Assembly (NCBI GenBank): GCA_963753345.1
Contig: CAVWBU010000035.1
Span: 96,001 to 160,000 of the forward strand
Reading direction: 5' to 3'
Source: an uncultured Fibrobacterota bacterium
Lineage (GTDB): Bacteria; Fibrobacterota; Chitinivibrionia; Chitinivibrionales; FEN-1185
DNA: 64,000 nt
Part shown: piece after piece, positions 1,790 to 23,388 of the stretch
Numbering within the stretch: the stretch's first letter is position 1
Layout of the letters: each line of letters opens with the position of its first letter
Made by a program: the position numbers and the translations under genes
The notes under the pieces: generated by a model
Databases searched by the model: none
The model's input: only the letters and a program-made list of their open reading frames with translations
What the model was told of the DNA's origin: nothing

Positions 1790-2312
1790 TGGGCGCCCCG
1801 CCGAAGACGGCGGCGGTTCTCCTTCCGGTCCACCCCTTCGGGTGCTTCCAAGGGTCGTCGGCCTTCGGCCTCGGGCTGCCACGGCCCTATGGCCCAGAGG
1901 GCCGGGCCCGGGCAGCATCCCGCTCTAGCGGGACCTCCAGTCGCCCCTGGCGCAAATACCACTATTCGGGTATCACGTGGCTCTCACTATTCCGCTTGTG
2001 CAAGACCATATCTTCCGTAAGTTGTAAATGGTGCATACCGGGCACCGAGAAGAATTGCGGATTGAAGAGGAGAAAGTTCCTAACGGATTGCCTTGGAATT
2101 CCAGGTGGCGAAAAGATAAGATTGACTAATGATATTTCTTCTGCCGCGCGTTAGGTGGACCGGAGGGTGCGCTGGAGCGCATTGCCGCCTGACCCGGCCG
2201 AAGGACGGTTGGGACAGGCGGCAACGAGGCGAACAGCCGAGCCCGGAGGGAGACGACGCCACGAAGCACCCGAAGGGCCGTGGAACCGACCCCCGAAGCG
2301 GGGGAACGCCCA
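1790..2312. repeat. Inverted B/B pair of structured repeat modules (1790-1953 and 2106-2312)
   Basis: tgggcgcccc...ccccttcgggtgcttccaagg...ctccagtcgcccctggcgc faces ttctgccgcgcgttagg...ggggaacgccca. Confidence 0.85.
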
Positions 2313-2356
2313 ACGCTATTGTCTTTGCATTAGAAGAGAGACGCCCAATACTTTCT

Positions 2357-3121
2357 TTACTTCTTCTTTCCCGCCTTCCGAATCGCCGCCGCAATCTCTT
2401 TCATCGCGCCGATACCGCCTTTGGATTGCAGCAAATTTCCCGTCACGATGATGTCCGCGCCCGCGCGGATCTTTTCCATTGCGGTTGTCGCGTCCCGTAT
2501 GCCGCCGCCCACGATTACCGGGATGTCAACCGCCGAGCGCACCAGCGAGATCATCTCGTTGGGAACGGTGCTAAGTGCGCCGCTGCCCGCTTCGAGGTAG
2601 ACGAGCTTCATGCCCATGTACTGGGCGGCCAGCGCGTGGGCTGCCGCGATGTTCGGCTTGCTGCGCGGCAGCGGCCTGGTGTTGCTCATGAATTCGACCG
2701 AGGTCACGGTCCCGGACTCCACGAGCATGTAGGCCGTTGAAATCGGCTCGATGCCGAGTTGCTTGATAAGAGGCGCGGCCTTTACGTGCTCGCTGATGAG
2801 GTTGACCGGGTTTCTGCCCGAGATGAGGGAGAGGTACAGGAGCGCGTCGGCGTCGCCGGAAAGCTGGGTGGCGTCGCCGGGGAACAGGATAACCGGAATG
2901 CGGACCGACTTCTTGACCGATGCGACAAGCGGCGCGAACCGGTCGGTGCGGATGAGGCTGCCGCCGATGAGCAGGGCGTGGGCGCCCGCGGCCTCGGCCT
3001 GTTTCGCGATTGCGGCGCCTTCCTTGGGAGAAAAATCGTCGGGATCGAGAAGGACCCAGTAGGACGGGACCTTTGCGCCGGTTTTCTTCAGGATGGATTG
3101 CAATACGGAGTTTGATTTCAT
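2357..3121 (-). CDS. pcrB: Geranylgeranylglyceryl/heptaprenylglyceryl phosphate synthase (GGGPS, group II-like)
   Basis: LLDPD, IGGS, ILFPG, DALLYLSLISGRNP, YLEAGSGA, VGGGIR motifs. Confidence 0.9.
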   Translation of the reverse strand: MKSNSVLQSILKKTGAKVPSYWVLLDPDDFSPKEGAAIAKQAEAAGAHALLIGGSLIRTDRFAPLVASVKKSVRIPVILFPGDATQLSGDADALLYLSLISGRNPVNLISEHVKAAPLIKQLGIEPISTAYMLVESGTVTSVEFMSNTRPLPRSKPNIAAAHALAAQYMGMKLVYLEAGSGALSTVPNEMISLVRSAVDIPVIVGGGIRDATTAMEKIRAGADIIVTGNLLQSKGGIGAMKEIAAAIRKAGKKK

Positions 3122-21696: not shown

Positions 21697-22995
21697 TTAG
21701 TTCCTTTCCTTCAGATAGTTTCTGGGATCTGTCAATTTGCCCGTGATCCCGCTCGCGGCTGCCGTGGCAGGGCTCACTAAATGCACCATGCCGCCCTTGC
21801 CCATGCGGCCGTAGAAATTCCTGTTCGTGGTCGACGCGCACACCTCACCTTCGGCGAGCACGCCGTTGCTCATCCCGAGGCATGCGCCGCAGGTCGGGTT
21901 GGTCACGCAGTAACCCGCGTCCAAGAATGTTTGGATGATCCCTTCCTTCATGGCCTCTGCGAAAACTTTTGGGGTGGCGGGACTCACGATGCCGCGTACG
22001 CCCTTTGCCAGCCGTGTGCCCTTGACAATTGCCGCAGCGATGCGCAGATCGGAAATCCTGCCGTTGGTGCAGGAGCCTATGTACACTTGGTCAATCTTTA
22101 CATCCGCAAGCTCGCGGACCTTCTTCACCTGGTCGGGCTTGTAGCCGATGGTTGCGACAGGTTCAAGGACGCTTGCGTCTATTGTCAAGCGTTTCTCGTA
22201 GGCCGCGTCCGGATCGGAATGCCACTTCCTGAAATCGGCGAGCGCCGCGGCCTTGTCGTTCTTGTACTGCGCTGCGATAAAGGGCCAGAGATATTCCACG
22301 GTCTGCATGTCGGGCATGCATATGCCGCTTGTTGCGCCCGCCTCCACTGCCATGTTACAGAGCGTCATGCGCTCGTCCATGGTCATTGCATCAACCACCG
22401 GCCCGCAAAATTCGATGATGCGGTCTGTTGCGCCGTTTACCGTGAGCGTCCGGATGATTTCGAGAATGACGTCTTTGGCATAGACTCCCTTTGCAAGCGT
22501 TCCGGTTATGTCAATTCTGATCGTTTGCGGCGGCCGGAACGCGCACACGCCCTTGAGGATGCCCACCTCCAGATCGGTGGTGCCCACGCCGGCAGCAAAC
22601 GCTCCGAACGCGCCGTGCGTGCACGTGTGGCTGTCACCCATGATAACCGTGTATCCGGGCCGGACAAATCCCTTTTCGGGAAAAAGGGCGTGACACACGC
22701 CGTTGTATCCTATGTCAAAGAAGTCAACGATGTTGTGCCGCGTCGCCCAGTCGCGCAGCATTTTCGCCTGCGTGGCGCTTTTGCTGTCCTTGGGCGGGCT
22801 CACATGGTCGATGACGGCCTTGATCTTCGCCGGATCGAATACGCGGTCCTTACCGCGGGCCATTAAATCCGCGATCGCGATGGGCGTGGTTATCTCGTGG
22901 CACATGACCACGTCGATGGCCAATACTTTTGTGCCCGGGAAGGGTTCGTCCTTGACATGCGAGTCGAAAATTTTCTGGGTGATTGTTCTACTCAT
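21697..22995 (-). CDS. leuC: 3-isopropylmalate dehydratase large subunit
   Basis: GVCH, GDSHTCTHGAFG, IGSCTNGR, CGACLG, STTNRNFYGRMG. Confidence 0.93.
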   Translation of the reverse strand: MSRTITQKIFDSHVKDEPFPGTKVLAIDVVMCHEITTPIAIADLMARGKDRVFDPAKIKAVIDHVSPPKDSKSATQAKMLRDWATRHNIVDFFDIGYNGVCHALFPEKGFVRPGYTVIMGDSHTCTHGAFGAFAAGVGTTDLEVGILKGVCAFRPPQTIRIDITGTLAKGVYAKDVILEIIRTLTVNGATDRIIEFCGPVVDAMTMDERMTLCNMAVEAGATSGICMPDMQTVEYLWPFIAAQYKNDKAAALADFRKWHSDPDAAYEKRLTIDASVLEPVATIGYKPDQVKKVRELADVKIDQVYIGSCTNGRISDLRIAAAIVKGTRLAKGVRGIVSPATPKVFAEAMKEGIIQTFLDAGYCVTNPTCGACLGMSNGVLAEGEVCASTTNRNFYGRMGKGGMVHLVSPATAAASGITGKLTDPRNYLKERN

Positions 22996-23035
22996 GATGG
23001 CTTTGTTTCCTTTCTTTTTGCTAATATGTTCTGGT

Positions 23036-23388
23036 GGGGACACCGCTTCGCGGTTTCCCCTGGGGTGCAGCTTCCTCCCGCCGATTTCGACGGGAGGTGA
23101 TCTGCACCCACACCCTTTCCAGCGGAAACCGTGCACGAGGCGCACCGTTTACACAGTGCGCGCGTGTCACGTTTCCGCAACGCCTTCGCTATGGAATGCC
23201 GCTTCGCGGCGATGAATGCGAAACGGCCCGACCTTACTTATTATCCGTCAACAACTCTCCTTGGGTGCCCCCCAGCCGCAGATTGATTCTTGCAACTACT
23301 CCATCTTGGGGGTCACCCAGGAGGGGGTAGCGCAGGACACCGCAGGCCGAAGGCCGAGGAGGCCGGAGCGAGGGGGAAACTTCCCCCA
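23036..23388. repeat. Inverted A/A pair of structured repeat modules (divergent forward A from 23036; reverse A 23261-23388)
   Basis: ggggacaccgcttcgcggtttcccc tggggtgcag...ctgcacccacaccc matches the 43393 copy; reverse A nearly identical to 61240-61307. Confidence 0.75.

Follow-up and report, generated by a model that had tools for sequence, protein, structure and literature searches.

Two-ended, non-coding repeats of a mobile type in the gaps between genes of an uncultured Fibrobacterota bacterium

We analyzed a stretch of 64,000 nucleotides (the window; G000:C35:96001-160000) in the metagenome-assembled genome (MAG) of an uncultured Fibrobacterota bacterium, here termed G000 (4.52 Mb in 55 contigs, 56% GC, 94% complete). 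The gaps between the genes of this bacterium hold two-ended, non-coding repeats of a mobile type. A whole unit consists of a module termed A, an array of 8-nt GTTGARNN repeats and a second module termed B, an order that is written below as A>B>, with arrowheads giving the direction of each module. Nine whole units lie in the window together with a further A, a solo B, an inverted B/B pair (<B B>) and an inverted A/A pair (A><A), and the genes beside them include recA, adk and those for a histidine kinase and a response regulator (Table 1). Both inverted pairs had been described in a first-pass annotation of the window and both are indeed there. The B/B pair joins a partial reverse B to a full forward B, and the A/A pair joins a standard reverse A to a forward arm that belongs to a divergent A variant, A'.

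Profiles for A and B were made from the nine full window units, iterated once and then searched against the genome, which gave 285 A and 418 B copies. Alignment of the nine units reveals a common layout with a median unit length of 415 nt. Specifically, A (~122 nt, with several helices) starts with a GGGGGA..TCCCCC hairpin that is followed by a long core hairpin ACCCCCTCCTGGGTGGCCCCC...GGGGGCACCC, and B (~182 nt, also with several helices) has a TTGGCGC..TTGAC..TAGATT head, a multi-helix body closed by GCGTT...AACGC, and the terminus GGGGGAACGCCCA. The spacer between them is AT-rich and strongly strand biased, with GTTGA occurring 564 times versus 7 times for TCAAC in 209 spacers. GTTGA spacing is 8 nt in 248 cases and 115 of the 209 spacers contain at least three copies. 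A strand-specific tract with an 8-nt period indicates that the spacer belongs to the element. The family occupies 424 of 2901 gene gaps, and its gene-flanked clusters cover 2.90% of the genome. These counts are slightly inflated by duplicated or strain-variant MAG segments, as G000 contains near-identical syntenic contig sets (C44/C45/C46, C4/C5/C16 and C10/C39/C43).

The A' variant keeps the layout of A: its terminal hairpin (GGGG..CCCC, with another hairpin, CCGCTTCGCGG, nested in it) is followed by a second stem and then by a ACACCCTTTCC core. A single-sequence search gave 25 A' matches, 18 of them without overlap to A or B matches. Only these first-round matches were kept, since the iterated profile drifted into A (47 of 79 matches overlapped A or B). 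A recurrent hairpin, CATTGCGAGCG.AGCGAAGCAATC, found inside some spacers (window 775-807 and, in reverse, 55980-56010, as well as spacers of the related genome G001), is a further small module of the mosaic. In a scan of 185,579 species genomes, a 27-nt B pattern occurred at 10 loci, all of them in two Chitinivibrionales/Fibrobacterota MAGs. The window gave 0 Rfam matches at the gathering score, and no literature on such repeats in this lineage was found in a search that most subscription journals lay outside of.

Structural constraint on the modules was assessed with column-pair statistics, as RNAalifold run on nhmmer alignments gave almost no structure owing to misalignment of the variable hairpins. 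In the covarying helices Watson-Crick pairing is maintained and G-T mismatches are as rare as A-C ones (0.4-3.7%), and in three tested modules both strands fold into mirror-image hairpin sets (z -0.9 to -3.4). The equal rarity of the two mismatches and the two-strand folding agree better with constraint at the DNA level or on both strands than with an RNA gene on one strand. Possible pairing within a unit of CCCTCC in A with GGAGGG in B showed no co-variation by eye in the nine window units.

The first-pass annotation had proposed that modules always read inward from the flanking genes, and a genome-wide table of orientation agrees with this nearly everywhere. Among 445 clusters in G000 there are 201 A>B>, 130 solo B, 70 solo A, 26 <B B>, 6 A>B>B>, 3 B>B>, 3 <B<B B>, 2 A><A and four singletons, and neither B><B nor <A A> occurs. 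Thus, the outer ends of a cluster are nearly always the 5' end of A and the 3' end of B. The count of 26 <B B> versus 0 B><B has a binomial p=3e-8, and the 26:0:3 distribution departs strongly from the 1:1:2 expected of independent orientation (chi2=65). Adjacent B pairs in the related genome G004 are likewise all <B B> (4/4) among the 44 matches listed. The rule is broken by one A><B cluster, by one <A<B B> cluster and, if A' matches are counted, by one B><a cluster. Overall, outward-facing (3) and tandem (about 14) clusters are rare, and with the relatedness of the termini described below, neither of the two outcomes that the first-pass annotation had named as refuting its proposal is seen. 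Solo modules are also polar: 52 of 67 A and 102 of 121 B have their outer end closer to a gene than their inner end. Median distances from outer ends are 26-29 nt to stop codons and 76-94 nt to start codons; in the window they lie 73 and 44 nt from the neighboring open reading frame (ORF) ends for the B/B pair, and 41 and 19 nt for the A/A pair.

The two ends also share a loop polarity that holds well beyond the window. As had been noted for the window, TTC loops fall on the inward strand of both ends and GAA loops on the other, such that triloop hairpins on the forward strand of A are TTC in 53 cases and GAA in 0, while those on the forward strand of B are GAA in 340 cases and TTC in 4. The heptamer GCGAAGC occurs 72 times in B versus 4 times for its complement, and this heptamer is described as a classic, extraordinarily stable DNA mini-hairpin (PMC13037366).

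Relatedness of A to reversed B is most evident from discrete sub-modules. An exact hairpin 14-mer, GGCCGAAGGCCGAG, has 99 matches in G000 and 0 in a reversed-genome control; 64 of these are in B on the B strand, 35 are in A on the opposite strand, and none are placed otherwise. Its distance from the outer end is 28 nt in A and 42-58 nt in B. An 18-nt mini-hairpin module has 97 matches (1 in the control): 53 lie within B and 14 next to it, with the strand being that of B, 15 lie next to A on the opposite strand, and 15 have no module within 150 nt; in the related genomes G001 and G005 this module is located inside the first hairpin of A. At the termini, the motif pointed out by the first-pass annotation, in the generalized form TTCCCC+TCGC, occurs in 69 of 285 A starts, in 55 of 418 reverse-B starts and in 0 of the other orientation. 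The terminal motif GGGGAACGCCCA, allowing at most 1 mismatch, has 328 matches (24 in the control), of which 80 are outside B, and many of these form a second outer terminus that is located 35-60 nt past B of the GGGGCGCCCA subfamily or past reverse-A ends. Both terminal motifs that the first-pass annotation had quoted are present, at 20641 and on the reverse strand at 33255. Three parts are thus common to the two ends as mirror images of each other, namely a G/C-run motif at the terminus, a hairpin of the form GGCC-GAA-GGCC and, optionally, the mini-hairpin. Sub-modules common to reversed A and B in one fixed orientation indicate that the ends are related as inverted copies. G001 additionally contains a mini-element in which a reverse-B terminus and an A hairpin are combined with ~140 nt. 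We also observed a motif, GGGGGAA.G..CAGCCTGTCTCAAAAC, that is followed ~14 nt later by a reverse-B terminus with no B body (window 1749-1789 and G004, L022 rc 2500-2281), which may be a further end-associated module.

In regards to how the ends are paired, the two-ended elements (A' counted) comprise 4 A/A, 210 A/B and 28 B/B, where random pairing predicts 49, 120 and 73, respectively. The excess of A/B indicates that the ends are not freely interchangeable. The first-pass annotation had described A and B as interchangeable, distantly related ends of one element. The relatedness is upheld by the 14-mer, the mini-hairpin, the terminal motif and the loop polarity, but the free interchange is contradicted by the A/B excess. 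The 30 adjacent <B B> pairs have an arm likeness of 0.755 versus 0.806 for random B pairs, with one arm truncated at model positions 13-45 and a gap that is mostly 45-66 nt. About 20 of these 30 pairs contain one homologous spacer of ~50 nt, indicating that they are copies of one amplified composite and not independent assemblies. The B/B pair in the window is a chimera that runs from a reverse B into an A core (3' half only) and on through the tract to B. The pair at C15:66925 is built likewise, with the same chimeric spacer recurring at G000 C15:66925-67033.

We compared the window junctions with those of same-genus genomes (G001, with flanking genes ~87-94% identical; G002-G005, ~70-85%; and G007) and observed insertion polymorphism, with empty versus filled sites at five junctions. 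For example, recA and the next gene have stop and ATG 2 nt apart in G002 and G004, and are projected to overlap in G003 (where ATGA is visible) and G007, whereas an A..B unit of 430-500 nt separates them in G000, G001 and G005. The gap between the histidine kinase and response-regulator genes is a projected 25 nt in G005, where by eye stop and start may overlap, versus 464 nt in G000. A convergent gene pair at 16.8 kb is separated by a few tens of nt (by eye) in G004 and by 475 nt in G000, with G001 and G005 having other left modules plus B. The 23.0-kb site is 53 nt long in G003; it contains A' plus reverse A in G000 and G004, a truncated A' plus reverse A in G002, and a reverse B plus a short reverse A in G005. 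Finally, the Sua5/MazG junction is empty in G003 and G005, and contains other small modules in G002 and G004, B alone in G001, and A, tract and B in G000. R6, an orthologous site, has A' as its left end in three genomes and reverse B in a fourth. The empty and filled alleles show that whole A-tract-B units were inserted. As the element makes up most of its gap, its ends abut genes, and the inward reading largely follows from this; nothing in the data shows modules homing to gene boundaries.

Some differences between relatives are gene-sized. Specifically, at the 20.6-kb site G001 has an A>B> unit, ~1.1 kb and a second A>B> unit where G000 has one unit, and the window's series of A, ORF 947..1717, reverse B and B corresponds in G001 to a single A>B>. 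Both of these differences look like recombination between units in direct orientation. Judged from match coordinates, gene-content differences of G000 relative to G001 and G004 stop at repeat modules. The G000 and G001 copies at the same site rank 5th to 210th among 216-334 paralogs, which is compatible with either replacement or plain divergence, and copies in species whose genes are ~23% apart are up to 91% alike. Preliminary BLAST counts of candidate copies suggest that the family is abundant in G000, G001, G002, G004 and G005 and sparse in G003.

We consider it probable that A and B are the two ends of one mosaic family that was inserted at gene junctions as whole units and was later subject to reshuffling and host selection. 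Each end would have gained its own large folded body beside the mirror-image sub-modules that the two ends share. A trans-acting enzyme, now absent or unassembled, would have recognized the hairpin-bearing ends and inserted whole units with no target duplication of at least 4 nt; it is this enzyme and its mode of action that we infer. Recombination may then have reshuffled the copies, giving rise to end swaps, the amplified B/B composite and one-ended remnants, and recombination between two units could have deleted the genes lying between them. Host selection would finally have shaped orientation, such that A tends to follow stop codons.

Several observations weigh against this interpretation. 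One is that no mover was found. Y1/RAYT transposases (RAYT, REP-associated tyrosine transposase; REP, repetitive extragenic palindrome) gave 0 PF01797 matches in G000, with the same search being positive in 6 of 14 control genomes, the TnpB zinc ribbon (PF07282) also gave 0 matches, and no autonomous insertion sequence (IS) with matching ends was seen, results that in a 94% complete MAG do not prove absence. A second is that 150 units, scanned at offsets 0-39, have no target duplication of 4, 5, 6 or 8 nt above shuffled-partner controls. The longest common substring equals the null, and the target-site duplications that the first-pass annotation had suggested looking for are thus not seen at a length of at least 4 nt in these units. 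At the recA site AAGGAAGAA is present on both sides and a long duplication is possible by eye, but this sequence is of low complexity. The flanks are not random, as A-n-T-Y-T-T-T-T occurs after ...CGCCCA and ..TTTTGGT before the A hairpin, so that the true ends may lie a few nt further out. Third, 200 of the 445 clusters are solo by the two profiles, and no recognizable partner terminus was seen for 57 of 64 solo A or for 92 of 115 solo B. However, 40 of 54 solo A and 57 of 100 solo B have an inner flank that recurs elsewhere, indicating that many solo modules are parts of composites with unmodelled module types. Fourth, generic ends align only weakly. When 32-nt A starts were aligned with reverse-complemented B ends the mean score was 13.7, compared to 11.2-12.1 (sd ~3) for the controls (shuffled sequences, internal windows and B ends in forward orientation). 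Even so, no other offset scores better than the terminal ones in this comparison, which the first-pass annotation had also proposed. When the outer 75-95 nt were aligned with MAFFT for seven copies each of reverse A and B, the register was ambiguous, and base-by-base homology of the ends is therefore not established. Fifth, the median identity to the nearest paralog is 87% for A and 89% for B, which gives no sign of very recent jumps and indicates that the family is not freshly amplified in G000; the 16-17 copies with at least 98% identity are probably the duplicated contigs of the MAG. Sixth, no empty allele was found in four metagenome DNA runs (4000-23900), but their contigs stop at repeats. 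Finally, gene ends were taken from a crude home-made ORF caller, with ORFs over repeats removed by coding score.

Several candidate movers were rejected. A 930-bp IS5-like element has three copies in G000 (C18:84641-85048, C32:215672-216079 and C49:51509-51916; two identical and the third 99.6%), and its ends, GAGCTTATCCATAAATAA, are unrelated to the modules. It is flanked by CTTAG/CTAAG-like sequence, and one copy is directly beside a B module. IS91-like elements make no target duplication and have unlike ends. An IS91-like (Y2 HUH) transposase ORF of 477 aa is present at G000 C26:285223-286656, beside a DDE transposase near the contig end; this element has one copy in G000, six in G002, two in G004 and none in the repeat-rich G005, and its transposase family has no match in any of the 14 control genomes. 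It was rejected for its unrelated ends and for its absence from G005. The rve, IS110 and other DDE loci have no module termini, the multi-copy ORF families that could have been IS elements in this MAG are duplicated contigs, and ORF 947..1717 is a single-copy, signal-peptide-like gene with no Pfam family.

A different explanation, to which we give a low probability, is that A and B are separate elements, each inserted or retained alone beside a gene end with a fixed polarity, so that A>B>, <B B> and A><A are mere combinations that arise when both edges of a gap are capped. This would account for the 130 solo B and 70 solo A modules, which are themselves polar and mostly without a partner terminus. 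It would also account for the Sua5/MazG junction, where B alone in G001 versus A, tract and B in G000 differ by an indel with a clean edge, and for the 23-kb site, where the right module is A in four genomes and the left module varies. However, separate caps leave unexplained the A/B excess over random pairing (210 versus 120), the strand-specific GTTGA tract that joins A to B, the one spacer shared by B/B pairs, and the whole units in gaps that in relatives measure a few nt or are an overlap. The inner flanks of solo modules, being mostly repeated DNA of other module types, also argue against it, and we know of no mechanism that senses both gene starts and gene stops.

The orientation of the units relative to genes is biased on the host side. 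Of 245 outer A ends, 165 face a stop (p=6e-8), whereas the outer end of B is unbiased (185 starts versus 172 stops). Solo A modules follow a co-oriented gene in 27 versus 6 cases, units in gaps between co-directional genes share the orientation of those genes in 72 cases and oppose it in 29, and clusters are enriched in convergent gaps (125 of 424 clusters versus 432 of 2901 gaps). Read outward, both ends consist of a hairpin followed by a T-rich tail. This bias fits selection on an effect that the hairpin-rich ends may have on transcripts, by analogy with BOX, enterobacterial repetitive intergenic consensus (ERIC), bacterial interspersed mosaic element (BIME) and Correia elements, for which transcript effects are reported (PMC3049150).

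These same biases would be expected if the units were functional cassettes kept by the host, with A acting as a 3' hairpin cap or terminator and B, which has a promoter-like motif of its own (TTGAC..TAGATTT), as a small RNA or structured leader, and with the arrangement reflecting selection on transcription and mRNA stability. The stop-facing A ends, the co-orientation, the convergent-gap enrichment and the hairpin plus T-rich tail all favor such cassettes, as do the covariation of helices between subfamilies and the likeness of up to 91% between copies in distant species. We nevertheless regard it as doubtful that this explains the family. Any given site is dispensable, being empty in congeners; B shows no preference between starts and stops; the window lacks Rfam matches; there is no excess of G-U over A-C and no strand preference in folding; and the promoter-like motif is only 50-70% conserved and is not flagged by a sigma-70 scan. 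In addition, no gene-function theme is seen among the neighbor genes.

It is also conceivable, if improbable, that the units move by an undescribed DNA mobility that recognizes the ends, carried out either by an unrecognized Chitinivibrionales enzyme or by host repair or replication that copies hairpin-ended units. Under such a mobility the ends would be the 60-180-nt multi-hairpin folds with their strand-specific GAA-triloop (GCGAAGC-type) mini-hairpins, landing would be precise even between abutting or overlapping genes, and the ends (A, A' and reverse B) would be swappable with polarity kept.

Least probable by far are REP, BIME or REPIN elements moved by RAYT (Y1 HUH), or an IS200/IS605-type derivative moving on single-stranded hairpins, which the extragenic mosaic, inverted pairing, subterminal hairpins, lack of target duplication and presence at each end, on one strand, of GAA-triloop hairpins of the GCGAAGC type (72 versus 4 in B) would suit, but which the zero counts of PF01797 (against 6 of 14 positive controls) and PF07282 and the modules of 120-180 nt with multiple helices, in place of 20-40-nt palindromes, largely refute for the G000 assembly. 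The likeness to REP doublets that the first-pass annotation had drawn is thus not borne out as to membership, as there is no Y1/RAYT gene and the modules are 4-6 times longer than REPs. A GTAG-type head is a feature of REPs, and none was identified in the units, although no search aimed at it was made. Membership among REP/RAYT elements fails on the lack of a RAYT and of short palindromic units, and strict membership among MITEs (miniature transposable elements with inverted repeats) fails on the lack of a target duplication and of a cognate IS.

The closest analogs in behavior are BOX-type composites, BIMEs and MITEs. BOX elements of S. pneumoniae (boxA - boxB array - boxC) likewise have two different ends around a variable tandem array in intergenic DNA, and BOX-type elements of S. 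suis are built from several subsequences in set permutations (PMC3049150). The BOX and Fibrobacterota units are also alike in their hundreds of copies, high degree of base pairing, partial forms and lack of a gene of their own (PMC3049150). For BOX, terminal inverted repeats (TIRs) are reported and a link to ISSpn2 has been proposed (PMC3049150), whereas no IS with similar ends was found in G000. The Fibrobacterota units further differ in having ends of 120-180 nt that are multi-helix and GC-rich, an array period of 8 nt, and no target duplication. Sequence homology to boxA, boxB or boxC would be unlikely given the different phylum and GC content. BIME and REP-REPIN elements (PMC2817692 and PMC3116915) share with the present family the extragenic mosaics of high copy number at gene ends and the alternating orientation, seen here as <B B> 26 versus B><B 0 and as A><A 2 versus <A A> 0. 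The family is unlike them in that G000 is without RAYT/Y1, the units are 4-6 times longer, and the two ends are unlike. Correia elements, NIMEs (Neisseria intergenic mosaic elements) and MITEs resemble the units in being small and non-autonomous with inverted ends and variable interiors, in lying in or beside operons, and in presence/absence polymorphism between relatives (PMC3049150). MITEs are defined by TIRs and target-site duplications, often with an IS that has matching TIRs (PMC3049150). The units are under ~600 bp, non-coding, multi-copy and polymorphic in insertion, as are MITEs, but their inverted ends are imperfect, no duplication of at least 4 nt is detectable and no matching IS was found. 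Palindrome-associated elements derived from IS200/IS605, and other elements with single-strand hairpin ends, also have unlike ends, subterminal hairpins and no target duplication (PMC6006769), whereas neither a Y1 transposase nor TnpB was found in G000.

What is new here is the orientation grammar with its statistics, the inverted parts shared by the two ends, the amplified B/B composite, the empty-site evidence for whole-unit insertion, and the tests of target duplication and of candidate movers, which were negative. The grammar describes one of the most elaborate bacterial mosaic repeats so far. For annotators of Fibrobacterota MAGs, the family is a reason for long 'intergenic' regions (2.9% of G000), and its copies appear to mediate gene-sized deletions between close species. 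For the mobile-DNA field, this is a family in which neither a mover nor a target duplication was found. If the mover proves to be new, then the two-ended hairpin architecture would mark a new route of transposition or copying; if not, the family would be a well-characterized case of BOX/BIME-like evolution in an uncultured phylum.

Table 1. Repeat modules and units in the window, with positions counted from its first letter
Feature	Position	Strand	Remarks
A module	490..632	+	5' end 4 nt from start of upstream minus-strand gene; in G001 the orthologous A belongs to a plain A>B> unit
Partial reverse B (model positions 46-180)	1790..1953	-	Left arm of B/B bracket; mini-hairpin module inside
B/B bracket spacer	1954..2106	+	Degenerate 3' half of A core plus tract
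Full B	2107..2313	+	Right arm of B/B bracket; 3' end 44 nt from stop of PcrB-family gene
Whole unit	5857..6288	-	recA/next gene; A 6288-6142, B 6036-5857
Whole A>B> unit	11573..11931	+	Divergent gap, adk / radical-SAM gene
Whole A>B> unit	16794..17197	+	Between convergent genes
Second, outer B-type terminus GCGAGGGGAACGCCCA	17225..17240	+	~40 nt past B end; recurrent in GGGGCGCCCA subfamily
Whole A>B> unit	20642..21152	+	
A'	23033..23240	+	Left arm of A/A bracket; missed by main A profile
Standard A	23260..23386	-	Right arm of A/A bracket; 19 nt from stop of HTH-cupin gene
Whole A>B> unit, long B	32816..33256	+	G001 has reverse B at left edge of site
Solo B	39577..39787	+	
Whole A>B> unit	43460..43814	+	Sua5 / MazG
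Whole A>B> unit	52836..53191	+	
Whole unit	55747..56179	-	Histidine kinase / response-regulator genes
Whole unit	60906..61306	-	

The window units are oriented 6 plus versus 3 minus, and cumulative GC skew rises throughout the window, with nine units being too few for such a comparison. Two palindromes, CCCCGCGACTTGGCGCGGGG and CCCCGCCACTTGGGGCGGGG, ~75 nt apart, are present at window ~660-760, inside the gap between A and ORF 947..1717, and may be members of another short repeat family. When match coordinates are compared, ~2 kb containing a GH16 gene and the solo B at 39577..39787 (window ~37988-39940) appears absent from the G001 synteny block, and the G004 synteny block is without ~12.5 kb (window ~30000-42500) that contains GH30, TPR and GH16 genes. 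A stretch with a lower GC content (49-53%), which the G004 synteny block lacks, codes for three paralogous small proteins with signal-peptide-like starts and no Pfam match (window 35392-35943 on the plus strand, 36210-36773 on the minus strand and 37052-37837 on the plus strand), which are 30-62% identical. Two of these form a large inverted repeat, and three more copies are located on contig C49.

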